Source of the DNA: a virus
Taxonomy: Duplodnaviria; Caudoviricetes
DNA: 64,000 nucleotides
Strand: one strand, 5' to 3'
IMG/VR virus record: IMGVR_UViG_2667527450_000001
Coordinates: 9,397-73,396 of that record
A model generated the notes under the pieces. That model was not told the DNA's origin, did not search any database, and saw nothing but the letters and a program-made list of their open reading frames with translations. The position numbers were made by a program, and so were the translations under genes. Positions 2,150 to 27,852 of the stretch are shown in pieces; position 1 is the stretch's first letter, and each line of letters opens with the position of its first letter.

Positions 2150-3109
2150 ATGACCACCTACCTGCTCCACCTCCACATCCCCGGACATGACACGCGGCCA
2201 CTCACCATCACCGGCGGCACCCCGGGTGAACTCGCCGCCGCCGTACACCGGCACGCCCGCGGCCAACTCGGCAGCTCCCGCGTCGACGTACACCTCGACG
2301 GCCTCGACGGCGAAATCGTCGCCCACGGCGCGACCGCGGGCACCTTCACCCTCCAGCCGGTCGAACAAACCCAGCCGGCCACCAGCGACTCCACTGCCGC
2401 CGACCACGTCGCCCACGGCTACACCATGCGCGACCTCGACCGCGCAGCACGCGCCGCCTGCACAGCCGACCGCACCCTCTCCTCCAACATCAGCCTCCGC
2501 TACGACCTCGCCTGGTCAGCCATCGCCGAACACCTCGTCACCACCGACCAGCCCCCGGCATGGCCCGAGTTGGTGCGCGTCGGCTGGCAGGCCATCTACC
2601 AGGACGTGAAGGCCGTCCGCCGCCTCTACGGCGTCGACTCCACCGGCCGCTCCGGCGAGGTGGCATCCGCACCCCGCTTCGTCGCCTACTGGACCCACGC
2701 GTCGACCGACGGGGCAAGCGACGGCATCGTCGAGCGCATCGCCGTCCACCAGGTTCTCGCCACCCTCCCCGAGCATCAGCGGCAGGCGGTCGTCGCCCTC
2801 GCCACGCAGGACGACTACCAGAAGGCCGCCGACGCCCTCGGCATCAAGTACGCGACCCTCACCGCCCGCATCCGACACGGCCGCCGAGGATTCCGCACCC
2901 TGTGGTTCTCACCCGAGACCGCCCCGCCCACCAAGGGCACAGACCGTCGCGTCGCCTCCCGAGCCGGCACCCCAAATCACTGCCCGCAGGGCCACGAGTA
3001 CACGCCGGAGAACACCATCCGCCGGCCCTCCAGCCGCGGTCGACGCTGCCGCACCTGTGAACAGATCCGCGACGCCGCCCGCAACCGCCGCCGTGCGGAG
3101 GTGGCTTGA
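2150..3109 (+). CDS. sigma-70 region 4-like protein with C-terminal Zn finger
   Basis: VLATLPEHQRQAVVAL..YQKAADALGIKYATLTARIRHGR; C-terminal HCPQGHEYTPENT..CRTC. Confidence 0.7.
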   Translation: MTTYLLHLHIPGHDTRPLTITGGTPGELAAAVHRHARGQLGSSRVDVHLDGLDGEIVAHGATAGTFTLQPVEQTQPATSDSTAADHVAHGYTMRDLDRAARAACTADRTLSSNISLRYDLAWSAIAEHLVTTDQPPAWPELVRVGWQAIYQDVKAVRRLYGVDSTGRSGEVASAPRFVAYWTHASTDGASDGIVERIAVHQVLATLPEHQRQAVVALATQDDYQKAADALGIKYATLTARIRHGRRGFRTLWFSPETAPPTKGTDRRVASRAGTPNHCPQGHEYTPENTIRRPSSRGRRCRTCEQIRDAARNRRRAEVA

Positions 3110-3527: not shown

Positions 3528-4511
3528 ATGCCCTGGTTCGCGCTCGACGACGGGTTCGACACCCACCCGAAGGTCCGCAAGGCGGGTAACGCTGCGGCCG
3601 GGCTGTTCTGCCGCATGGGCGCCCACTGCGCGAAGCACCTCACTGAGGGGCTCGTCGACAGCGCGACCGCGCGGGACTACGGCAGCGTTGCCCAGCTCCG
3701 GAAGCTGGTAGACGTCGGCATGTTGCACCCGGCCGGCCACGGTTGTGGAAGGTGCCCGCAGCCAGAGCCGGGCGGATACGTCTTGCATGACTACCTCGAC
3801 TACAACCGGTCCCGGAAGCAGATCGAGACGGCCCGGGAGAACGGCCGGAAGCGCCAGCAGAAGGGTCGCGACCGGCAGGCTGAAGCCCGCAAGCGCAATG
3901 ATTCGAGCGCGAATCGAGACGCAAACGCCGCCCAAAATGAACGCGATTTGGCGTCATTTTGCGTCCAAAATGAACCTCACTTTGAGGAAGGAACCGCAGG
4001 CCAGGGGCATGTGTCACGGCGTGACACCCTCCAGGGTGCTACGGCCGTCCCCTCCCATCCCATCCCCAGCAGTTCTTTCAGAACTGCTGCTAAGGGCAGC
4101 GGGCAGCTGGCCGGGATCTCCATCCCCGAGTGGGCGCAGCCTCTGGTCGACGCTCTCAGCGACAGCAACATCCACCTCAGCTGGCGACTCAGCACGATGC
4201 AGTGGGGCGCGGTCCAGGAACTGATCAACACCCGTGGGGTGCCGTTCCTTGCAGAGCAGGCCCGACGCCGCTGGAACCCGAAAGACCCGATCAAGTTCGC
4301 CAGCTTGCTGATTCAAATCTGGTGCGAGATCCCGGCCCCGTCGCCCCGCAAGGCCCGCGACGGCTCGTCGAACGAACTTCCCCCGTACTGCGGCGACCCC
4401 GACTGCGACGAAGTCACCCGCACCCGCGACGTCGAGCACGCCAACGGGATCCGCTCTCTCACGCCGTGCCCTGTATGCCACCCATCCCGTAAGGAGAACC
4501 GAGCCGCATGA
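3528..4511 (+). CDS. phage replication initiator-like protein
   Basis: N-terminus MPWFALDDGFDTHPKV..AAGLF; LHDYLDYN; directly upstream of the helicase; C-terminal Cys cluster. Confidence 0.7.
   Translation: MPWFALDDGFDTHPKVRKAGNAAAGLFCRMGAHCAKHLTEGLVDSATARDYGSVAQLRKLVDVGMLHPAGHGCGRCPQPEPGGYVLHDYLDYNRSRKQIETARENGRKRQQKGRDRQAEARKRNDSSANRDANAAQNERDLASFCVQNEPHFEEGTAGQGHVSRRDTLQGATAVPSHPIPSSSFRTAAKGSGQLAGISIPEWAQPLVDALSDSNIHLSWRLSTMQWGAVQELINTRGVPFLAEQARRRWNPKDPIKFASLLIQIWCEIPAPSPRKARDGSSNELPPYCGDPDCDEVTRTRDVEHANGIRSLTPCPVCHPSRKENRAA
3900..4027. repeat. candidate replication origin repeats inside the rep gene
   Basis: CCAAAATGAAC at 3932 and 3965, inverted TCATTTTG at 3954, palindromes 3900-3915 and 4011-4027; locally AT-richer. 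Confidence 0.55.
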
Positions 4512-5863
4512 CCGACGAGTTCGAAGACCTGGAGCGCACCCCGCCTCAGCACCTGGAAGCTGAGCAGGCTGTTCTCGGGGCGATGTTGCTCAGCCCCAGG
4601 AGCGTCATCGACCAGGTGATGCCCATCGTCAAGCCGGATGACTTCTACCGTCCCGCCCACGAGATGATCTTCACGGTCATCTGCGACGTCTACGGCCGCA
4701 GCCGCGACCCGAAGATCGACCCCATCACCATTGCCGCCGAGCTTCACAGCGCTGGACTCATCGAAAAAATCGGCGGCGCCACCTACCTTCACACGCTCGT
4801 ACAGACAGTGCCGTCCACCGGCAACGCCGACTACTACGCCCACATCGTCTACGAGAAGGCGCAACTCCGGCGCGTCATCGAAGCGTCCAGCAGGGCCGCT
4901 TCCCGCGCCTACGCCTCCCAGGGCGAGGCGACCGAAATCGTCGATGACGCCATGGCAGAGCTGCAAGGCGCCGCCACTGGCATCTCCGCAATCGAGGTCA
5001 AGCTCAGCGTCAGCGACCGGTGGGCCGGCTTCCTCGACGAGCTGGAGGCCGGCAAGGATCCCCGGGCACTGGACACGCCCTGGCAAGACCTCAACGAAAT
5101 CGTCGAGTTGAAGCCCGGCCAGCTAGTGACAGTCGGCGCCGCCACGGGCGGAGGTAAATCGCTGCTCGGCATGAACCTCGCCGCGCACGTCGCCATGACC
5201 CGAGCCCGGCCCGTGCTCGTCGCCTCCATGGAGATGGGCGGCTCGGAACTCATGGCGCGCCTCACCGCAGCCGAAGCGTCCGTGAACTTGGACCGGCTCA
5301 TTCGCCGGAAGCTTGAGGACTCCGACTGGGCAAAGATCGCGAAGGCTTCGGAGCGGCTACAGAACGCCCAGAACTTCATCCTCGACGACTCGCCCAGCCT
5401 CACCGTCAGCAAAATCCGGGCCCGCATGCGATGGATGACCTCCCGCGGCACACCACCCGCCATGGTCGTCGCCGATTACCTCCAGCTCCTCACCCCCGAG
5501 AGCAGCAAGGGCAGCGGCGAGAAGTCCCGAGCTGTGGAAGTCGCCGAGCTATCCCGCAACTTGAAGCTGCTGGCGATGGAGTTCGAGATCCCCGTAGTCG
5601 CCCTTGCCCAGTTCAATCGCAACGCGGTCGGCCGCCAGCCGCAGGTGTCGGACTTCAAGGACTCGTCGGCGATCGAGCAGGACTCGAACGTGATCGTGCT
5701 CATGCACCGACCGCTGGCCGAGGACGGATCCGACACCAGCGAACGCGCCGGTGAGATCGACCTCATCGTCGCGAAGAACCGCAACGGCGCCTCCGGCCGC
5801 ATCGTCCCCCTGGTCTTCCAAGGCCACTACGCCCGCCTGCGGTCCCTCGGCCGCGCCGTCTGA
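4508..5863 (+). CDS. dnaB: DnaB-like replicative helicase
   Basis: PPQHLEAEQAVLGAML, Walker A GAATGGGKS, SMEM, DYLQL, AQFNR, SSAIEQD, AKNRNG. Confidence 0.95.
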   Translation: MTDEFEDLERTPPQHLEAEQAVLGAMLLSPRSVIDQVMPIVKPDDFYRPAHEMIFTVICDVYGRSRDPKIDPITIAAELHSAGLIEKIGGATYLHTLVQTVPSTGNADYYAHIVYEKAQLRRVIEASSRAASRAYASQGEATEIVDDAMAELQGAATGISAIEVKLSVSDRWAGFLDELEAGKDPRALDTPWQDLNEIVELKPGQLVTVGAATGGGKSLLGMNLAAHVAMTRARPVLVASMEMGGSELMARLTAAEASVNLDRLIRRKLEDSDWAKIAKASERLQNAQNFILDDSPSLTVSKIRARMRWMTSRGTPPAMVVADYLQLLTPESSKGSGEKSRAVEVAELSRNLKLLAMEFEIPVVALAQFNRNAVGRQPQVSDFKDSSAIEQDSNVIVLMHRPLAEDGSDTSERAGEIDLIVAKNRNGASGRIVPLVFQGHYARLRSLGRAV

Positions 5864-5876
5864 CAAGGAGCTCAGC

Positions 5877-6149
5877 GTGATCACCTGGAACGAACTCGTC
5901 CTCGCCGAACCGCGGCTGCGGGACCTTGAGGCACAAGCCCGAGCCGAGGCCACCAAGGCACTGCGGGACCCGGAATGGTCCTTCTCTGCCTACTGGTCCT
6001 TCACTCTGCGGCCCGCCGTCAACCTGCTCGTCGGTTGGAAGCGGCCTGGCACCGATCAGCCCCAGCTGCGCACAGAGGAAGCGTGGCATGCCGCGATCAG
6101 CCACTTGATCTGCTTGCTGCCCGAAGGCGAAGGGGCGCTGGCGTCATGA
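5877..6149 (+). CDS. hypothetical protein
   Basis: AAGGAG RBS and GTG start; coupled to next gene. Confidence 0.65.
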   Translation: MITWNELVLAEPRLRDLEAQARAEATKALRDPEWSFSAYWSFTLRPAVNLLVGWKRPGTDQPQLRTEEAWHAAISHLICLLPEGEGALAS

Positions 6150-6340
6150 AGGACACCTGCCCGGCTTGCCTGACCCGCGACATAGCCCCCGCCGAATCCC
6201 GCCGCCGCGGCGGCCGAACCGTCGACGGCTACCAGTGCCCCCGCTGCCGCCACACGTGGGCCACGGTCCGCGACCTCACCGCCTACTCCGAACTCCACGC
6301 CCGCCGCGCCCAGCGCCGCAACCGAAGGAGCGCCGCGTGA
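6146..6340 (+). CDS. small Zn-ribbon protein
   Basis: CPAC...YQCPRCRHTW; ATGA overlap. Confidence 0.65.
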   Translation: MKDTCPACLTRDIAPAESRRRGGRTVDGYQCPRCRHTWATVRDLTAYSELHARRAQRRNRRSAA

Positions 6341-6642
6341 TCCAGATCCTGCCCATCGGGACCCCGGTGTGGGTCGCCCAGGCCGCTGACCCGTCGACGG
6401 GCCGCCGCGCTCTGGCCGGCGACGGGGTGGTGACCGGTCACGTGCCGTGCAGCGCTTGCTGGCAGCGGTACACCGGTTCGATCCGGCGTATGTCCCGGGC
6501 CGCCTACGCCGCGGTGGCCGCAGCGTGCGACAGGCCGGCCGGGTTCGTGGTCACGGTCCACCGTCGGCCGGTGACCGTCACCGCCGACGACCCCACGGTG
6601 ATCGCGGTGCCGATCACGAGCGATGAGCGGAGCACGGCATGA
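6337..6642 (+). CDS. hypothetical protein
   Basis: GTGA overlap, AAGGAG RBS. Confidence 0.6.
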   Translation: MIQILPIGTPVWVAQAADPSTGRRALAGDGVVTGHVPCSACWQRYTGSIRRMSRAAYAAVAAACDRPAGFVVTVHRRPVTVTADDPTVIAVPITSDERSTA

Positions 6643-6830
6643 GCCACTACGTGTCCATCGTCTGCGACACTGTCGACGACTTCGGCGAACGCTGCTGGAC
6701 CGAAGACAGCGGTCCGGGTGAGCCGAAGTCCGCGACGGCTGCCCGCGAACGCCTTCGGAGCGGAGGCTGGCACCGGACTCGCGACGGCCGCGACATTTGC
6801 CCCGGCTGCTGGACGGACGGTCGGCGATGA
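6639..6830 (+). CDS. small Cys-rich protein
   Basis: CD..C...GW..GRDICPGC motif; coupled genes. Confidence 0.65.
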   Translation: MSHYVSIVCDTVDDFGERCWTEDSGPGEPKSATAARERLRSGGWHRTRDGRDICPGCWTDGRR

Positions 6831-7105
6831 CCGCCCGCTGTCGCGCCTGCCGGCGTCGTCTGACGCGCCCGGCCGCGGATGGTCTCGGGCCGGTGTGTCG
6901 CCGCCGGATGCAACCCGCCGTGCTGGCACCGCGCTTGGACCTGCCGCCCGCCGTGCCCGCCGCCTCAGGCCAGCTCGCGTTCGACGACCCGCCACCCGAG
7001 GTGCCGTGCAGCGAGTGGCCGGCACCCCGCCGACTCGACCGCCGAACCGTCACCGTGCCCGGACCCGACACCTGGAACCCCAACCCGCCCGAGGAGGCTG
7101 CCTGA
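6827..7105 (+). CDS. DUF6011-like Zn-finger protein
   Basis: CRACRRRLT...GLGPVC. Confidence 0.65.
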   Translation: MTARCRACRRRLTRPAADGLGPVCRRRMQPAVLAPRLDLPPAVPAASGQLAFDDPPPEVPCSEWPAPRRLDRRTVTVPGPDTWNPNPPEEAA

Positions 7106-7818: not shown

Positions 7819-8253
7819 GTGACCCACCGACAAGAACCGGCGAGCGAAACCGAGCACCACGACCGGGAAACCCCCGAGAACGCCGCCAGCGGCCCGCAGG
7901 GCGCCGCGCGAGGCGAGAACGACGCCCTGGATGCCGAAGCGCCCGAGAGGGCCGCAGACGGGCGCGTAGCACCCCGCGACCCCACCACACCCGACGCCAC
8001 CATCCGCCGGCAGCTTGAGCAGATCCTCGCCCTACGCGAAACCGTCATCCAGCAGCGGGCGGCCATCGACCGCGTCCGGGCGCTCGCCGCCGACATGCGC
8101 ACCTGGTGCTCACCACACGGCATCGCTGCCGACTACGCCGACCGACTCCTCGCCGCCTGGTTCGCGTACACCGCCCTCGGGCCGCTCGTCGCACCGGTGC
8201 GGCTCGAAGTCCGGCATCCGGAGACGACCGCGAGCGGGTGCCGGTCGTGCTGA
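7819..8253 (+). CDS. hypothetical protein
   Basis: AGGAG RBS and GTG; coiled-coil AAIDRVRALA. Confidence 0.5.
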   Translation: MTHRQEPASETEHHDRETPENAASGPQGAARGENDALDAEAPERAADGRVAPRDPTTPDATIRRQLEQILALRETVIQQRAAIDRVRALAADMRTWCSPHGIAADYADRLLAAWFAYTALGPLVAPVRLEVRHPETTASGCRSC

Positions 8254-8318
8254 CGGGCAACGCGCTGACGACAGACGAAAGCCGCACACCGGAAGGCGTG
8301 CGGCTCGGGCGAGGCAGG

Positions 8319-8837
8319 TCAGGCGTCGTCGGTCTGCTTGTCGGCTGCGGTGCGGGCGCGGAAGAGGTCGGCGCGGCTTTGGTACTTCTCCGCGACCGGG
8401 ATGTCGTGCTCGCGGGCGAGCCGGCGGAAGACCTCGGGGGTCATGCCGGTAGCCGCGGAGAGCTGGGCTGCGGTCGCGCCCTTGCGGAGTTCGGCGACCG
8501 CGAGTTCCGTGACGATCGGGCGCAGGAAACGAACCTCTTCCAGCGCTTCCCTGTACTCGCCGCAGAGCTTCTCCGACTCGCTGTCGCCCAGGGGGCGGAC
8601 GATGTGGTGGAGGTTCCAGTACGGCTGTTCTGCCCTGATGGCCTCCTTCTCGGTCTTGGCCGCCTCGGCGCGAGTGTCGTGCCACTCCACTCGGCGCTCC
8701 GCGACCTCGGGCCACCATGGTTTCGTCTGGGAGTGCTGGCCGAAGCGAACGTCGGGGTTCTGGCTGATGCCGATGTAGAGCAGCTTCCCCGCGGCGTCGA
8801 AGACGCGGTACAGAGCGGTTCGTCCTTCGCGCTTCAC
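8319..8837 (-). CDS. GIY-YIG nuclease fused to C-terminal HTH
   Basis: TALYRVFDAAGKLLYIGISQNPDVRFGQH..EKEAIRAEQPYWN; GTGA overlap with RHH gene. Confidence 0.8.
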   Translation of the reverse strand: MKREGRTALYRVFDAAGKLLYIGISQNPDVRFGQHSQTKPWWPEVAERRVEWHDTRAEAAKTEKEAIRAEQPYWNLHHIVRPLGDSESEKLCGEYREALEEVRFLRPIVTELAVAELRKGATAAQLSAATGMTPEVFRRLAREHDIPVAEKYQSRADLFRARTAADKQTDDA

Positions 8838-9055
8838 TCGGCGTTGCCTTGCGCCTCGGAGGACTCGGCCTTCCAAGCGTCCCGGTCGGGTCGCTTCACT
8901 TGCTTGGCGCCGGGCTTGTGGATGTACCAGGCCATGAAGGCGCGGATAGCTGCACTGCGGTCGGTTCCCATGGCGGCGGCGGCTTTGCCGAACTCTGCCC
9001 ATTCGTCCAGGTCGACGCGGACGGGGCGGGTGGGTGTCTTCGGTGCGTTCGGCAT
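8834..9055 (-). CDS. ribbon-helix-helix (CopG/Arc-like) protein
   Basis: TPTRPVRVDLDEWAEFGKAA..TDRSAAIRAFMAWY. Confidence 0.75.
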   Translation of the reverse strand: MPNAPKTPTRPVRVDLDEWAEFGKAAAAMGTDRSAAIRAFMAWYIHKPGAKQVKRPDRDAWKAESSEAQGNAE

Positions 9056-9074
9056 GCCCGGACCGTATCCAGGC

Positions 9075-9200
9075 GTAGCTACAGGCTGCAACGTGAGCTC
9101 CTCTCTGGTGTAGCTACGAATCCCTGTCGGGTGTAGCTACAGATTCTTCGGATTGAGACTTGCGGTGTAGCTACACCCAAGAGTACGGTGTAGCTACACC
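9075..9200. promoter_or_regulatory. array of five palindromic GTAGCTAC operators in a divergent promoter
   Basis: Cores at 9075, 9110, 9133, 9167, 9190; last two are perfect GGTGTAGCTACACC. Confidence 0.8.
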
Positions 9201-9253: not shown

Positions 9254-9523
9254 ATGAACGCCACCGCAGACGCCTTCGAGCCTGTCGACTTCAGCGCTGT
9301 CGTGGAAGGTGACCGTCTGCGCTTCCTGACCAACGACAACGGTTACGGCGGGCGCGGCACGTACCGACGTACTGGAACCGTCGTCCGCGTCACCGGCAAG
9401 ACGGTCAAGGTTTCCTGTGACGACGGCACCAGCGGAACCCTCCGCCACGCCGACTGGCGAGCGCGCTCTCCGCAGCGCGCCAGCGGCGCTGAGTGCGCCT
9501 GTACCCGCCGCTTCGAGCGCTGA
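9254..9523 (+). CDS. hypothetical protein (SH3-like beta pattern)
   Basis: GGGGAG RBS; RTGTVVRVTGKTVKV. Confidence 0.6.
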   Translation: MNATADAFEPVDFSAVVEGDRLRFLTNDNGYGGRGTYRRTGTVVRVTGKTVKVSCDDGTSGTLRHADWRARSPQRASGAECACTRRFER

Positions 9524-14925: not shown

Positions 14926-15600
14926 CTACGACCAAGACGTGCAGGTTCCGAGGGGGACGAGGTAGTACGTGTCGGTGGCTTCACTCACCGCGACGACGGC
15001 ATCGGCGTCGCTGAAGTCGAACCACTCGCCGCGAATCTTGCGACTATCGAACCGGTTGTGCAGGTGGGACTCCAGGCGCCAGTCGCCACCGAAAGACCAC
15101 AGCACGCGCAAGTCATGCGGCGACGAAGTCTGAATGTCCCCCAGCCGTGAGCGCAGGCTCGATGTCGTGCCGATCTTCACTACGCCCTGCGGCCGTTCGC
15201 CGATCACATAGACCACAGAGTCCTGCCGTTGAAGCGGAAACGGCGCGCGAGGCTCCTGCGGCGCGGACTCATCCCATGCGTTTGGGAGGTCACACACCTC
15301 GATCAGCGTGAAGAACACGCCGCCAGATAGCCGCTTCCGGGTGCGTCGCATGTAGCCAGCCTCTTCCAGCTCCGCGAAGAGAGCCCGCATAGCCCGCCGC
15401 CCCTCCCCTCGGGTGTCACCGCGAGCCTCGCGTGCAGCACGCGACAGCTCGTCCGCGTTCGCCTCCCAACCTTCCGGCCGGCTCAAGATGCCCAACAGCA
15501 GCCCCCTTGCGGCATAGCTGAGCCGCTCATCCATCGCAGTCGTCCGAGGGACCGCCGTGAAGTTCCAGCCGCTCGCCTTGATCACTACCTTCATCACCAT
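14926..15600 (-). CDS. Rep-like winged-helix fused to a T5orf172/GIY-YIG-like domain
   Basis: N: NFTAVP..LSYAARGLL..ELEEAGY; C: VVYVIG..VKIGTT..RL..E..LH..F..IRGEWF. Confidence 0.8.
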   Translation of the reverse strand: MVMKVVIKASGWNFTAVPRTTAMDERLSYAARGLLLGILSRPEGWEANADELSRAAREARGDTRGEGRRAMRALFAELEEAGYMRRTRKRLSGGVFFTLIEVCDLPNAWDESAPQEPRAPFPLQRQDSVVYVIGERPQGVVKIGTTSSLRSRLGDIQTSSPHDLRVLWSFGGDWRLESHLHNRFDSRKIRGEWFDFSDADAVVAVSEATDTYYLVPLGTCTSWS

Positions 15601-15666: not shown

Positions 15667-16485
15667 TCAGGCGGCTTCCGCGGCCCCCAGGGTCAGTTGC
15701 CCCTTCGCCTCGAACTCGTTGACTGCCTCAGCGATCTCGGCGTACACCTGCTCCAGCAGCGGCCGGTCCTCCTCGCTGTAGACCACAACCTTGTCGATCC
15801 GTGAGCCCGCCGGCCCCGGGATCTTCTCCGGGCGCCGCCCGTGCACCTTCAGATAGCGGTTCGAGACACGCGACCCGAACCCGGACTGGAACTTCGCCAC
15901 CGTCGCTGGCTTGTGACCCTTCTCCGCGAGGAACGTCGATGCGTACAGCGGCGTCTCCCCGCTCTCCAACTCCGGCCGTTCGCCCATCGCGCGGGCGAGA
16001 ATCACCTTGCCGGTCGCCGTGGCGTAAGGCTCGGGAAGCACTGGGCGGAGGATCGCAAGGATCTCCGCCTGCTCGCGGTAGGGGAGCGGGCCGGCCGCGG
16101 CGGTGAGCTCCCGATGCTGAGCTGGCGGCGCTACGGGGTGGACCTCCGCCTCGCGGGTCTTGATCACGAAATACGCCTGAGCTCCGGCGACCTCGGGCTT
16201 GTTCGGATCTCCGTTCATCGCGACCAGGTAGGCCGCGTAGCGACTGAGGTGGTAGTCCATGCGGGGGCGCCCGCCCGTGGAGTTGTCAGGGGATCGCCTG
16301 AAAAGCTGCTCCGCGTCCTGCCCCGTGTTGGTGGCTGCTGTCGCGGCTCGTTCGAGAGCCCGCTGGAATTCGTTCCAGCGGGCGTATCCCATGAGGGGTT
16401 GCAGGTCGCGTGCACTCCAGTGCTCGCCCTCGGGGGTGGTTCGCTTGATGCTGTCGAACGGGGATTCCCCGTCGCGTGGGACCAT
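15667..16485 (-). CDS. BRO-N/DinD-like phage antirepressor
   Basis: SPFDSIKR..EHWSARDLQPLMGYARW..DYHLSRYAAYLVAMNGDPNKPEVAGAQAYF. Confidence 0.85.
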   Translation of the reverse strand: MVPRDGESPFDSIKRTTPEGEHWSARDLQPLMGYARWNEFQRALERAATAATNTGQDAEQLFRRSPDNSTGGRPRMDYHLSRYAAYLVAMNGDPNKPEVAGAQAYFVIKTREAEVHPVAPPAQHRELTAAAGPLPYREQAEILAILRPVLPEPYATATGKVILARAMGERPELESGETPLYASTFLAEKGHKPATVAKFQSGFGSRVSNRYLKVHGRRPEKIPGPAGSRIDKVVVYSEEDRPLLEQVYAEIAEAVNEFEAKGQLTLGAAEAA

Positions 16486-16600
16486 GGTCACGGTCCCCTC
16501 CGTTTCTGTGGAAGGTTCGGAGCTGATCACCGCCTGCGCCTGGGTAGCCGCCCGGGCGCAGGTCTTTATCGCGGGGATTCCCGCGACTCCCATACACACA

Positions 16601-17335: not shown

Positions 17336-18073
17336 TCAGCCCATGTCGTGCTCGGCGGACGTCTTGCGGCCAGCGCCGTAATAGTCGACTGCGTACTCGG
17401 TCGGTTCGCCGTTCTGGTCCCAGTAGTGATTCACCACGGTCAGCAGGGGCGCCCCCGACTCTTCGTCAAGCAGCTCAGCGACGTCGGCCGGAGCGGGGCT
17501 GATCGAGACCGTGTCACGGCGTCGGGCCACACGGCGCCCGGTCTTCTCCTCGATGAGGCCGAAGGTCATCTTCGGCAAAGGCTCGGGTGCGAGGAACTCC
17601 GGCGCCCGATCCGCCAGGGCGCCCGAGATCCAAGTGGCAGAGACCACCGCCACACCCTCGTCGTCTAGGTACTTACGCCGACGGCGCGCCACTTCGGCAC
17701 CGAGTTCCAGGTTGAGCGCGTCCGCGACGTCCTGGGTGGCAGGCTGCCGCTCGGCGTCCAGGAACTGGACCTCTTCTCCGTCGGTCAGGCCAGTGCCACC
17801 GGAGCGCACGAGGGTAAGCCGGTCGGCGCCTGTAGTGAGCTTCTTGGGCGCGGCCACGATGGTTCCCACGCCAGGGGTTGCGATAGCCCACCCTTCGTCC
17901 CGGAGGAAGCGGGGTACGCGGGAAGCCGTTGCTGAGCTGATCCCTTCCTTCTTGATGATGTCTCGGACAGACGGCAGAGGGTCGCCCGGCTGCAGTTCAC
18001 CGCTCTTGATCCGTTCGATCAACGCCTCAGCGATCCTGCGATACGGTGGGAGGTTTTGTGGGTTTTGTGTCAT
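17336..18073 (-). CDS. GntR (HutC/UTRA, KorSA-like) repressor
   Basis: PPYRRIAEAL..GELQPGDPLPS..PGVGTIV plus UTRA-like C-domain. Confidence 0.9.
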   Translation of the reverse strand: MTQNPQNLPPYRRIAEALIERIKSGELQPGDPLPSVRDIIKKEGISSATASRVPRFLRDEGWAIATPGVGTIVAAPKKLTTGADRLTLVRSGGTGLTDGEEVQFLDAERQPATQDVADALNLELGAEVARRRRKYLDDEGVAVVSATWISGALADRAPEFLAPEPLPKMTFGLIEEKTGRRVARRRDTVSISPAPADVAELLDEESGAPLLTVVNHYWDQNGEPTEYAVDYYGAGRKTSAEHDMG

Positions 18074-24451: not shown

Positions 24452-26569
24452 ATGGCTATTCACACTCCCTCTGCGGACACTGAAGAACTCGTGCGGCCGA
24501 CCCTGAGCCTCGTCAAGAACACCCCTGTCGAGGGCGCGGTCGTCGAGCATCAGGGTGAGAAGCGCCCGGTGTGGATCCACTCGCAGAGGGCTCTGCGTCA
24601 CGTGCTCGATAACCGTCTGTACATCGGCTGGTCGTTGCGCGGGTACCGGGAACTGGGCCGACGGTGGCTGGAGGCGCGGCGAGATGACCACCCGCAGATG
24701 ATCGAGAGCGCGCGTCTCGCGCTTCGCGCTGCCAAGCGCAACCTGGACCGTGAGGCGGAGATGCGGGACCTCCTCACCGAACGGCGGGAGGCGTACAGGC
24801 GCCACAAGCGGATCATGGTCGCTAAGACCGGTGGCTGGGCCGCTGCCATCACAGCTGGCGCCACCGTAGGCGCTGTCACGGGCGGCCCCGTGGTCGACCT
24901 CCTCATGGGGCTCGGCGCCATGGCCCTCGGCGCCTGCCACGGCCGGCCCGAGCCGGCGGACGACATCGAGGAACCGAACCAGCAGGAGCGGGAGATCGAA
25001 GCCGGGCCTCAGGACGACGTGGCTCCGGCCCCCGCCCCGGCCGCCGCCGAGCGGGCCTTCGACGCTCCGCCGCCCCCGGCCCTCACGATCGAGGAGCTGG
25101 ACACGGCGCTGCGCGAGATCGGCATCGTCAAGGGGCGTGAGCAGATCACTGTCCTCGCGCCACCCGAGCGCGGCGAAGACGGCAACACCACCGCCGTCTT
25201 CGACCTCCCCGCCCGCGTCACCGTCGCCATGCTCCTGAAGCAACTGGAAGCCCTCGCCGGAGCTCTCGGTCGCGACTCATCGATGATCGACGTGGTCAAG
25301 GCCGGCACCGAACGCCGCGTCTCCCTGTGGATGACCGACGCCAACCCCTTCGGGACGCCGCGCCCGTCCCCCCTGCTGGTTCTGCGAGGCGCCATCGACG
25401 CCTGGAAGAACGGCGTGCCCGTCGCGTGGAACAAGCGCGGCATCACGATCCGGCTGGTCATCAACAACAGCTCGTTTGTCATCGCTGGCATGACCCGCTC
25501 CGGCAAGGGCGTCGGAGCTTCCAACTTGGTCGTGGGCGCCGCCTTTGATCCCCGGATCAACCTGCGGATCGTGGCCGGAAAGAACAACGGCGAATGGGAC
25601 GCCTACGCCAAGACCGGGATCGCTTCCACGTACTTCAAGCCCAGCCCTGAGCGGCTCCTCGCCCTGCTGAAGGGGCTGTTGGCGGACAAGGACCGGCGTG
25701 AGGCCGAGCTGGGCAGGCTCGGCAAGTCCAAGCTTGTGGAGTCTGCCATCGAGCACATTGGCGGGCTGGAGCTGCTGGTCATCGACGAGCTGGCCACGTA
25801 CACGCGGCCGGGTAAGCCGCTGCGTGACGAGATCCTGGAAGCTCTGATCGAGCTGTCTGCCGTTGCTGCTGGCGCGGGCATCCTCTTGGTGCTCATCACG
25901 CAGTACCCCGAGGTCGATGTGATCCCGCAGGCGCTCGCGATGAACTGCGGTACCAAGTGGGCGATGCGCGTGGACAACGCGGATCAGTCCAACGCCATCC
26001 TCGGCAAGGGCTCATCTGGTGCGGGCCGTGACGCTTCCAAGTTCGATCCGCCGCGGCCCGGTCTGGGCTGGCTGGTGAACCCCTTCGCCGGGGTCACCGA
26101 CAAGGCCCGTAGCTTCGACCTGGACGAGGACGAGCGGGGTGAAATCACCGTGCTGCTGGAGCGGGCCGCGAAGATCCGCGAGCAGGCGGGCCGTCTCGCC
26201 GGGCAGTGGGATGACGCGATCGAGAGGCAGCTAGTCAATACGACCGGCCTGTCGTCGACAGCCGGCGGGCCGAAGCGGGACGGTGTGCCCGGCCGCCAGG
26301 TCCTCAACCACACGCCGGAGCAGAAGCACCAGATCGCATGCTGCCGTGAGGCTCTGGTGGCGATGGATGAGCTCGGGCGGGATGTGGCGCAGCTGGAAGA
26401 GATGGCGCAGCTCATCGGCGCTATCGCCGGAGACGACCTTGGCAAGGCCCTGCGTGCGGCCGGCGCCGGAGGCACCGTGAAGATCACGTTGCCGGGTCGT
26501 GAGGGGCAGGTGCGCGGCTACCGGCGAGACGACATCAAGGACGCGCTGGACCTGCTGCTTGGTGCATAG
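24452..26569 (+). CDS. traB: TraB-like FtsK/SpoIIIE DNA translocase
   Basis: TM segments, Walker A IAGMTRSGKG, Walker B LLVIDE, ITQYP, C-terminal wHTH-like LGKALRAAG..VRGYRRDDI. Confidence 0.85.
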   Translation: MAIHTPSADTEELVRPTLSLVKNTPVEGAVVEHQGEKRPVWIHSQRALRHVLDNRLYIGWSLRGYRELGRRWLEARRDDHPQMIESARLALRAAKRNLDREAEMRDLLTERREAYRRHKRIMVAKTGGWAAAITAGATVGAVTGGPVVDLLMGLGAMALGACHGRPEPADDIEEPNQQEREIEAGPQDDVAPAPAPAAAERAFDAPPPPALTIEELDTALREIGIVKGREQITVLAPPERGEDGNTTAVFDLPARVTVAMLLKQLEALAGALGRDSSMIDVVKAGTERRVSLWMTDANPFGTPRPSPLLVLRGAIDAWKNGVPVAWNKRGITIRLVINNSSFVIAGMTRSGKGVGASNLVVGAAFDPRINLRIVAGKNNGEWDAYAKTGIASTYFKPSPERLLALLKGLLADKDRREAELGRLGKSKLVESAIEHIGGLELLVIDELATYTRPGKPLRDEILEALIELSAVAAGAGILLVLITQYPEVDVIPQALAMNCGTKWAMRVDNADQSNAILGKGSSGAGRDASKFDPPRPGLGWLVNPFAGVTDKARSFDLDEDERGEITVLLERAAKIREQAGRLAGQWDDAIERQLVNTTGLSSTAGGPKRDGVPGRQVLNHTPEQKHQIACCREALVAMDELGRDVAQLEEMAQLIGAIAGDDLGKALRAAGAGGTVKITLPGREGQVRGYRRDDIKDALDLLLGA

Positions 26570-26585
26570 GTGCCCGCTTTGCCCG

Positions 26586-26721
26586 GTCTTGCGGGGTGGA
26601 TATCACACCGTTTGCTCCGTCTTTCGGGGTGGCTGGTGGGTGGATCCCATCCGGCTGCCATCCGCCATCGCGGATCCCCTCTCCACCCCGCAAGACGTGT
26701 CAAACCATGTCATATCCACCC
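26586..26721. repeat. clt-like repeat locus downstream of traB
   Basis: 15-bp inverted repeat GTCTTGCGGGGTGGA (26586/26682); GGGTGGAT at 26594, 26638 and inverted at 26714; variant at 26619. Confidence 0.65.
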
Positions 26722-26789
26722 TGCTGGGGCCCTGATGACGCCCAGCGACGGACCACGCGACACGAAACGATCACAAGGAGAAGCGCACG

Positions 26790-27473
26790 GTGGACGACAC
26801 GAAAAGCCGATGGGTCTACCTCGTCGGGTCGACTCTGACCAGGCCGGTGAAGATCGGCGTCGCTACGAACGTCAAGGCGCGCCTTGACGAGCTTCGGGTC
26901 GGCTCCCCGCTCCCGCTACACCTGATCTGGAAGGCGCGTGGCGGCCGGGCCCTAGAGAGGACCCTGCATGAGTACTTCTCCCCGTACCGCATCCACGGCG
27001 AGTGGTTCGACTTCGGAGACGAGAACCCCGCAGCGCTCGTCGCCACGGCAGCCGTGCTCATGGGCAGCCCTTCGCATCCCCAGCGCGTAGCGGCAGAGAG
27101 CCGTCTGCGAATCGTCCAAACCTCCCTGACGGCCGACGCGTCGAACGTGATCGGGCACCTGATCAACGCGGCGTCCGAAACCGGGCGAAGCTCGGTGACC
27201 AACGCCGAAGCGTTCGCCTACCTCGCCTCGGTCGACCCGGAGTTCGCTCGCTCCGATGGAGAGGGCGACGAGCAGTACCGATCGCGCGTCGGGAAGCGCC
27301 TCGCTGCCGCCCTGCGTGCAGAAGGCATAGCCGTGCGGCTCACGAAGGTCACGACGGCCGATGGCACGCGAAGCAACGGCTACCGGCTCGAAGCCCTTAG
27401 GGCAGCACTATCTGCTCGGTTCGAGCGTCGCCAACCCGTGCGCGCCACCTGGCCGCCGGCTAACCCCTACTGA
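26790..27473 (+). CDS. T5orf172/GIY-YIG-like domain fused to a TraB-type winged helix
   Basis: WVYLVG..VKIGVA..RL..LER.LH..IHGEWF; C-terminal LAAALRAEG..SNGYRLEALRAAL. Confidence 0.75.
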   Translation: MDDTKSRWVYLVGSTLTRPVKIGVATNVKARLDELRVGSPLPLHLIWKARGGRALERTLHEYFSPYRIHGEWFDFGDENPAALVATAAVLMGSPSHPQRVAAESRLRIVQTSLTADASNVIGHLINAASETGRSSVTNAEAFAYLASVDPEFARSDGEGDEQYRSRVGKRLAAALRAEGIAVRLTKVTTADGTRSNGYRLEALRAALSARFERRQPVRATWPPANPY

Positions 27474-27583
27474 CCTGTTCGGAAAACACCGGCCTCCGCC
27501 ATGGCCGCCACCCCCACGGCGATGGCGAGTAGCTCAGCCGGGGCGCCTCAACCCACCCACCCAACACCCGAGGAGATCACAGC

Positions 27584-27772
27584 ATGTTCACCGGCACCCC
27601 AAAGGAGCTGCGCAAGCTCCAGGACCAAGCCCGCAAGCTCGCCCTCCAGACCGCCGACCTCCTGAACCAACTTGACGCCCTGGGCCTCGGCTCTGGCTCA
27701 GGCCAGCTACACACCCCCGGCGGGATCATCCGCAACCGGCTCGGTCAGGGCTGGATCGTCACCGATCGCTGA
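27584..27772 (+). CDS. small hypothetical protein
   Basis: GAGGAG RBS. Confidence 0.6.
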   Translation: MFTGTPKELRKLQDQARKLALQTADLLNQLDALGLGSGSGQLHTPGGIIRNRLGQGWIVTDR

Positions 27773-27852
27773 CCGTGGCGGGGCGGCCGTCCACTGCCAG
27801 GCGCACAGCCGCCCCGCTGTCCACCACCCATCAGCAGCAGACAGGAATCAGC

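Follow-up and report, generated by a model that had tools for sequence, protein, structure and literature searches.

What is the target of a nuclease that carries the address domain of a conjugation protein, and why does its gene lie directly behind a traB gene? This question is raised by a locus in a 64,000-nucleotide stretch of viral DNA (Duplodnaviria; Caudoviricetes; positions 9,397 to 73,396 of IMG/VR record IMGVR_UViG_2667527450_000001), the whole of which is referred to as the window. The gene at 26790..27473 (+) encodes P0001, a 227-aa protein in which an N-terminal nuclease-type domain of the T5orf172/MUG113 group (GIY-YIG clan) is joined to a C-terminal winged helix of the type that forms the C-terminus of TraB translocases. 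P0001 probably serves as a nuclease whose targets are the transfer sites of conjugative elements, and to the more specific reading, i.e. that it is directed to the clt transfer locus and, in this element, aimed at foreign elements, we assign a probability of about 0.5. In the following, P0002 denotes the neighbouring TraB, and L, G and P numbers denote the loci, genomes and proteins compared.

The open reading frame (ORF) and its translation run from a GTG start at 26790 to a stop at 27473. The homologues begin at the same residue, and the sequence contains an AAGGAG ribosome-binding site (26775..26780, +) about 10 nt 5' of it. The GC content at third codon positions (0.80) is similar to that of the neighbouring genes, and a scan of 26400-27800 for promoters and terminators gave nothing informative. 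A word-indexed search of 5.8 billion proteins, with 8000 candidates scored, yielded 84 relatives at E ≤ 0.001, 67 of which span at least 89% of the query with identities of 45-100%; those that bear a name are annotated as 'GIY-YIG nuclease family protein' of Streptomyces, and NCBIfam offered no useful name. In searches of DNA collections, tblastn against the phage collection returned 15 records with N-domain matches only, none of them spanning 80% of the protein, the scan of genome contigs with P0001 gave 11 loci, none full-length, and in the metagenome scan two of 66 loci held full-length relatives, both on short contigs.

The AlphaFold2 model of P0001, calculated with 37 homologues as input, has a mean predicted local distance difference test score (pLDDT) of 80.3 and consists of two confident domains separated by a low-confidence linker. 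The nuclease-type domain comprises residues 1-92 (26790..27065, +), the linker residues 93-117 (27066..27140, +; pLDDT 54-61) and the winged helix, termed 'type A' here, residues 118-213 (27141..27428, +). Conservation follows the same borders, the mean pairwise identity of the 37 aligned homologues being 0.76 in the N-domain, 0.33 in the linker and 0.54 in the C-domain. Nei-Gojobori dN/dS ratios are 0.09-0.41 for the N-domain and 0.15-0.70 for the C-domain, where the three closest DNA pairs give 0.15-0.35 and distant pairs are near saturation. Both domains are under purifying selection, with the address domain evolving faster.

That the N-terminus is T5orf172/GIY-YIG-like had been proposed in the initial annotation and is borne out by Pfam, as residues 18-79 match both MUG113 (2.2e-13, 51 bits, cut-off 22.3) and T5orf172 (1.1e-8, 36 bits, cut-off 20). 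The core of the model has the order strand-strand-helix-strand-helix (strands 8-13, 20-25 and 44-50, helices 28-38 and 52-62; pLDDT 85-93), i.e. a GIY-YIG-like α/β fold, and the top structural matches of residues 1-104 among the representative chains in VIA are Slx1 (Z 6.0, root-mean-square deviation 3.3, 95 residues aligned) and At-HIGLE (Z 6.0), with the catalytic domain of I-TevI at Z 4.1. Among PDB structures Foldseek retrieved none for P0001 at E ≤ 0.001, the rows that appeared being weak winged-helix ones, and the family profile found chance-level matches only among PDB sequences. Y10 is kept in all 36 non-gap rows of the alignment, all 37 homologues have K21, I22, G23, R31, E56, H60 and E71, and the E71-W72-F73 stretch is invariant or nearly so. 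K21 stands in place of the second Tyr of 'YIG', as it generally does in the Pfam family. For the T5orf172 nuclease Odn, PMC8263062 includes the statements that a catalytic Arg and Glu are retained and that the E180A substitution abolishes cutting; by analogy, R31 and E71 of P0001 are the putative equivalents of these two residues.

The C-domain model shows the order helix-strand-helix-helix-strand-strand-helix with a pLDDT of 87-93, and its structural matches in VIA are winged-helix DNA binders (PafBC, Z 5.7; forkhead, Z 5-5.7; also ORC/Cdc6 and MarR). Its relationship to TraB became evident from plasmids, where tblastn matched residues 94-198 of P0001 to the 3' end of a gene on the Streptomyces plasmid CP075612.1 (E 5e-10). 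This gene codes for a TraB homologue (40% identity to the TraB of the window over 411 aa, E 2e-84), and the alignment of P0001 with the homologue's 120 C-terminal residues shows 40% identity over 123 aa (E 1e-18). When the 98-aa C-domain was searched against 400 other genomes of the same genus six of them contained a match, which in five cases is the extreme C-terminus of a TraB homologue of 688-831 aa (best match: the chromosomal TraB of G286, 55.6% identity over 90 aa, E 1.5e-28) and in the sixth a doubtful 260-aa frame. A HMMER pass over 1.84 billion representatives gave 17 matches at E ≤ 0.001, namely two members of the nuclease family, seven TraBs or C-terminal TraB fragments, five short fragments and three large repetitive proteins that look spurious. 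Judged from these searches, the type-A domain is essentially confined to one TraB subgroup and this nuclease family.

The same picture emerges from a maximum-likelihood tree of 58 C-domains, 39 of them from nucleases: 37 of the 39 form a single clade (support 97/97) that is nested among TraB C-domains, the nearest of which belong to P0088, P0091 and G059/P0095, followed by the G286 group. The two others (L030 and P0071) lie on a long branch, and a single origin of all 39 nuclease C-domains is possible. As a side observation, P0095 (1063 aa) is a type-A TraB in which a LAGLIDADG intein sits immediately behind the Walker A motif, i.e. another homing-type element in traB. The C-domain is retained in 37 of 37 aligned homologues of P0001, with Y163, R166, G168, R194 and G197 invariant, and P0001 and the TraB winged helices have conserved positions in common, namely SR.GK in helix 3 and R..GY in the wing. 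Thus, the assignment of this domain to the TraB winged-helix type, which the initial annotation had made, stands. As P0001 has no P-loop/translocase domain it is not itself a TraB and carries only TraB's address domain; RepA_N gave no Pfam match in P0001.

The neighbouring traB gene (24452..26569, +) encodes P0002, a 705-aa homologue with a short C-terminal winged helix that we call window-type. Of the 53 plasmid records that P0002 matches in tblastn, 47 are from Streptomyces, among the matches being a 12,652-bp S. venezuelae plasmid (30% identity, E 2e-24), which we take to be pSVH1; the protein also matches the PHROG family 'FtsK/SpoIIIE-like' (2.8e-26), and tblastn against the phage collection found no match. 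The model of its C-domain (pLDDT 79), whose best match is Rex at Z 6.9, shows a winged helix that is shorter than that of P0001 and has the same topology. The initial annotation had aligned the two C-termini by eye, and this claim holds in part: pairwise BLASTP of P0001 and P0002 shows the register seen by eye without being significant (E 1.7), yet this register recurs when 12 type-A domains are compared by hhalign with the C-termini of 13 window-type TraBs (probability 95.2%, E 2.7e-8, 97 columns), and the type-A hidden Markov model (HMM) scores 8.7 bits against TraB residues 659-699 of P0002 (E 2.2e-4). On the strength of these profile comparisons the C-domains of P0001 and P0002 are to be regarded as remote homologues. 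Bit scores of the P0001 C-domain are 99 to the G286 TraB and 71 to the CP075612.1 TraB, with none reported to the TraB of the window. As it is near the G286-type TraBs and remote from P0002, the address domain of P0001 derives from another TraB lineage and is not a copy of the neighbour's. TraB C-domains are swapped between lineages; window-type ones are present in 12 of the 400 genomes.

The 220-bp spacer between traB and the P0001 gene contains a clt-like array of GGGTGGAT/ATCCACCC repeats in inverted arms (26578..26724, no strand assigned), with five GGGTGGAT-like copies, three of them exact, at 26594-26721 in both orientations. Hence the initial annotation placed the ORF correctly, i.e. 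directly after traB and clt-like repeats. The 9.36-Mb genome has 277 copies of GGGTGGAT, and the spacer is the sole cluster of at least three exact copies within 160 bp; with one mismatch allowed, 61 copies are observed in the window against 61 expected, the motif being clustered only locally. TraB C-termini are described as reading 8-bp repeats, the TraB recognition sequences (TRS), in clt (PMC4447253 and PMC4170104). The window-type TraBs nearest to P0002 have the same motif 3' of traB, namely three copies of GGGGTGGA in L047 and three of GGGTGGAC in L048, and other TraB types are followed by other arrays: GGCAGGGT, four times, in G286, ACACAGGG-type repeats in G059, GGTCGGACAG in G045, GGTCTGCCAG in G384 and GACCCTGTACAGCCCTG in L030. 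These type-specific arrays fit the published 8-bp recognition rule. Since window-type TraBs share the motif and other types have different arrays, the local GGGTGGAT array belongs to the neighbouring TraB, and the address domain of P0001 is predicted to read a motif other than GGGTGGAT. The G286-type motif GGCAGGGT has five matches in the window against 3.2 expected, with neither enrichment nor a cluster. Just 3' of the P0001 gene, at 27551-27562, there are two overlapping copies of GGGTGGGT, which is one mismatch away from the clt motif; the gene thus has clt-motif-like sequences on either side, which may be due to chance.

The position behind traB recurs. Upstream DNA can be read in five loci of the family (the window, the IMG/VR loci L029 and L030, and the metagenome loci L060 and L061), and in every one of them the nuclease gene lies 160-220 bp after a gene for a TraB or TraB-like protein of about 700-745 aa. 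The upstream gene is a clear traB in the window and in L030. In L029, L060 and L061 it encodes a divergent P-loop protein that has a Walker A motif and whose C-terminus, of the window type, ends in an RGYRRDD motif; the TraB HMM (score about 0), Pfam and NCBIfam do not recognise the 743-aa protein of L029, nor does the TraB HMM recognise those of L060 and L061, so that the L029 protein may be called TraB-like only on account of its position, its length, its Walker A motif and the window-type C-terminus. The family elements are phage-like where the flank is long enough: L029 and L030 have phage genes and NUDIX genes, L030 alone a GntR regulator. In L030 the adjacent TraB is of type A, and yet the winged helix of the nuclease scores higher against the G286 TraB (65 bits) than against this adjacent TraB (25-30 bits).

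A scan of 81 loci with HMMs of the N-domain, the C-domain and TraB revealed that other T5orf172 proteins carry address domains as well. In L063 the gene of a T5orf172 protein whose N-domain is 61% identical to that of P0001 overlaps the traB stop by 4 nt, and its MarR-type winged helix is 42.9% identical to the C-terminus of its own upstream TraB (E 2.7e-8), Pfam finding MarR_2 in both proteins; one to three copies of this domain are present in L062, L064 and L065. In L080 a more distant T5orf172 protein is encoded about 250 bp after a TraB gene, and its C-domain, a third type of winged helix, is 42.9% identical to the C-terminus of that TraB (E 1.4e-15). To judge by these alignments, L063 and L080 are independent parallels in which a T5orf172 domain has apparently been joined to the address domain of a mobile element, and the winged helices on these nucleases are of at least three types. 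Most of the 81 loci have other or no recognisable address domains, and in L031, L033 and L066, which hold N-domain relatives of P0001, several kb of upstream DNA contain no TraB match. Conversely, a P0001-like N-domain is found 3' of traB in none of 13 window-type and none of five type-A TraB loci. Two further observations concern this neighbourhood. Directly after the type-A traB of G286, the gene L023:4246-5097 (-) shows a sub-threshold MUG113 match (18.7 bits) and a helix-turn-helix of the HTH_17/MerR type, and could likewise combine a nuclease with an address domain at this position. L080:4-4745 belongs to an integrative element of 63% GC, in which the gene of the TraB-like translocase comes two genes after that of a type IV coupling protein (T4SS-DNA_transf/TraG-D_C), i.e. 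both types of DNA-transfer ATPase are encoded side by side, followed by the T5orf172 gene.

We infer from this combination that P0001 binds TRS-like repeats and cleaves DNA. Its C-terminal winged helix, captured from a TraB translocase, would bind the short repeated TraB recognition sequences of a clt, and the flexible linker would allow the N-terminal T5orf172 domain to cut nearby DNA. As the address domain is of another lineage than the TraB and clt of the element itself, a foreign, rival target is likely: the targets would be the clt regions of other conjugative plasmids, integrative and conjugative elements of actinomycetes (AICEs) or phage-plasmids with a type-A TraB/clt pair, and the element would destroy or exclude such rivals with its own clt being spared, by the logic demonstrated for Odn of phage ICP1 and the PLE origins (see below). 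The initial annotation had envisaged two roles for a clt-targeted nuclease. Cutting rival plasmids or AICEs fits the window better, address domain and GGGTGGAT array coming from different TraB types, and processing of its own DNA fits less.

The closest known analogue of P0001 is Odn (Gp88) of the Vibrio phage ICP1, in which, as outlined in PMC8263062 and PMC10448857 (Barth et al. 2021, 2023), a T5orf172 domain is combined with a satellite-derived RepA_N domain and cuts the origins of phage-inducible chromosomal island-like elements (PLEs). Analogous T5orf172 nucleases with RepA_N are mentioned there for the E. coli phages Inny, Muut and Mt1B1_P17, and origin cutting by such nucleases is thought to drive the swapping of satellite replication modules. 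Odn and P0001 are both phage-encoded, both combine T5orf172 with a domain homologous to a mobile element's reader of cis repeats, the sequence likeness being known at the level of the Pfam domain, both have a conserved Arg and Glu, in P0001 the putative catalytic residues R31 and E71, and both have relatives with different captured address domains on related nuclease domains. They differ in what the address domain reads, i.e. a replication origin via RepA_N in Odn and the clt transfer locus via the TraB winged helix in P0001, which has its nuclease domain N-terminal and its address domain C-terminal. Moreover, the host of P0001 is Streptomyces, and the carrier element owns a TraB and a clt, with the P0001 gene right beside them. 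TraB of the Streptomyces plasmids pSVH1, pIJ101 and pJV1 is an FtsK-like translocase whose C-terminus reads the 8-bp TRS in clt, and the P0001 C-domain is homologous to such C-termini (E 1e-18 to 1.5e-28, as given above). P0001 lacks the translocase, membrane and oligomerisation parts of TraB and has a nuclease domain instead, and its winged helix falls into a different TraB subgroup. With the GIY-YIG homing endonucleases of the I-TevI type P0001 shares the free-standing gene in a phage genome, whereas it differs from them in belonging to the T5orf172/MUG113 branch, with K for the second Tyr, and in having an address domain from a conjugation protein. A search of a literature library found no paper joining GIY-YIG, TraB and Streptomyces, or T5orf172 and Streptomyces.

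Several points weigh against a clt-directed nuclease that attacks rivals. The structural Z-scores of P0001 are middling, with a maximum of 6.0, and the placement of R31 and E71 on the GIY-YIG catalytic positions follows from family knowledge and the fold. FtsK gamma is absent among the top 50 VIA matches of the C-domain models of P0001 and P0002, an absence that is no evidence against relatedness. The candidate target motif of P0001 is a guess based on the repeats behind the nearest TraBs. That the host genome has no cluster of G286-, G059- or L030-type motifs and no second TraB speaks for an attack on rivals, but it is weak evidence, as such TraBs are rare (6 of 400 genomes) and only one host genome is concerned. 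The 4-nt overlap in L063 suggests co-expression with TraB. In L063 and L080, and loosely in L030, the winged helix of the nuclease is of the type of the adjacent TraB, which is no less compatible with homing or with an action on the own clt than with an attack on rivals. Finally, T5orf172 proteins can be domesticated as regulators, as exemplified by CapR.

The main rival, though on balance unlikely, is a free-standing homing endonuclease, which may also be combined with the proposed attack on rivals. P0001 would then be a selfish gene whose winged helix reads the clt repeats beside the insertion point in nuclease-less relatives; after cutting there, it would be copied in by recombinational repair along with clt and the 3' end of traB as flanking DNA. 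A nuclease tethered by a flexible linker to a DNA-binding domain is the architecture of GIY-YIG homing enzymes, in line with the I-TevI match, and T5orf172 genes are referred to in PMC10448857 as phage homing endonuclease genes at the boundaries of genetic exchange. The gene always lies directly after traB although the upstream TraBs of the nuclease loci range from 39% identical to undetectable, and the interval between traB and the DUF6197 gene is polymorphic: in the window and in L029 the nuclease gene sits between the traB or TraB-like gene and the DUF6197 gene, whereas in the circular plasmid CP042280.1 (92.6 kb; L059), which has several genes in common with the window, including a window-type traB, traB and the DUF6197 gene are separated by a 450-bp gap that holds no nuclease gene. 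Homing is equally compatible with the constant post-traB position and with this polymorphism, and an own clt and TraB domain that are unlike the type of the nuclease are as for the immune allele of a carrier. On the other hand, the comparison revealed no allele that lacks the nuclease and has a cognate target at this site, the nuclease clades follow the element lineages (window; L029/L060/L061; L030), which is more like stable residence than frequent hopping, and the overlap of the L063 gene with traB looks operonic.

Three other explanations assign P0001 to its own element, to regulation or to no function at all. It is quite unlikely that P0001 is an accessory enzyme of TraB transfer, which would be recruited to the clt and nick or cut the element's DNA for threading by the translocase. 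The gene is on the same strand as traB and follows it and clt directly, the L063 and L080 winged helices are 43% identical to those of the adjacent TraBs, and in PMC3583192 TraB is said to move 'unprocessed' double-stranded DNA, with no processing enzyme known. This role fits L063 and L080 better than the window locus. The nucleases of the window, L029, L060 and L061 have an address domain unlike the type of the adjacent TraB, and the window-type and type-A traB loci mentioned above have no P0001-like N-domain, but for the sub-threshold MUG113 match in G286. Moreover, to our knowledge the classical TraB plasmids transfer without such a gene. A domesticated DNA binder that no longer cuts, e.g. 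a repressor or competitor on clt-type repeats, is improbable. Its precedent is CapR, which is named as a domesticated T5orf172 protein in PMC10448857, and the replacement of the 'YIG' Tyr by K21 is in keeping with it, even if general in the family; yet the N-domain, with Y10, R31, E56, H60 and E71 invariant, is the most conserved part of the protein, which a pure DNA binder would not need. The idea of a relic of specificity-domain swapping, raised in the initial annotation, is extremely improbable and largely refuted by the conservation data. An old traB 3' end would have been fused accidentally to a nuclease ORF and be decaying without function. Swapping of TraB C-domains does occur, and the fusion probably arose by recombination with a traB 3' end, but the domain is kept in the 67 near-full-length homologues down to 45% identity, has invariant residues and low dN/dS in close pairs, and folds with high confidence in the AlphaFold2 model.

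Returning to the clt-directed nuclease, we tentatively suggest a wider scheme, which we hold to be possible but not probable: T5orf172 nucleases of actinomycete phage-plasmids and integrative elements may repeatedly steal the clt-reading winged helix of a TraB, usually that of the TraB next door, making clt a nuclease battleground where an arms race drives swapping and divergence of TraB C-domains and clt. In a bolder variant, the enzyme might be, in some elements, the missing DNA-processing step of TraB-type double-stranded conjugation; P0001 would bear on the question of whether DNA processing accompanies such transfer. If P0001 cuts TraB recognition repeats, the Odn principle of arming a nuclease with the address domain of a rival would apply to conjugative transfer loci as well as to replication origins, and would reach beyond the phages of Vibrio and E. 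coli to Streptomyces. There would then be a concrete selective force for the hypervariable pair of TraB C-terminus and clt, which decides what elements are mobilisable, and natural pairs of nuclease and translocase with a common address domain would make TraB specificity tractable, as cut sites report recognition sequences.

The element that carries P0001 lies within a 414-kb contig and combines replication, phage and transfer functions. It has a replication initiator (3528-4511), a DnaB helicase (from 4508) and an integrase-like gene (from 61003), a phage module with terminase (from 34253), portal (35830), capsid (40779), tail tube (44408), tape measure (46803) and GH25 lysin (53810), and an internal tRNA-Leu(taa) at 2046-2123. 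A GntR/UTRA regulator (17336..18073, -; Pfam GntR 2.4e-12, UTRA 6.1e-21) forms an AICE-like module with TraB; regulators of this type accompany traB in AICEs and plasmids, and the same gene type is found near traB in L030. The element looks like an integrated relative of the conjugative plasmid-phages, of which PMC3583192 mentions pZL12 of Streptomyces. In the related plasmid CP042280.1 the traB homologue (4956-7048) is present in two overlapping frames, owing to a frameshift or a sequencing error.

The window contains two more nuclease-type genes. P0103 (224 aa; 14926-15600, -) is a second T5orf172/MUG113 protein, with the nuclease domain C-terminal, and its gene adjoins a Bro-N/Ant-like gene (15667-16599). 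Its N-terminal domain matches the PHROG annotations 'DNA binding protein' (4.7e-18) and 'replication initiation protein' (1.4e-8) and is not similar to the replication initiator of the window (E 1.3); the element may encode in P0103 a second chimeric nuclease of the Odn kind. The third is a gene for a 319-aa protein (2150-3109, +), whose C-terminal end matches PHROG HNH endonuclease families (4.3e-11). The densest cluster of short repeats in the window is found at 9072-9200, after the ORF at 8106-9113, where about six copies of the palindromic GGTGTAGCTACAC(C) lie within 130 bp; this array may be an origin or an operator.

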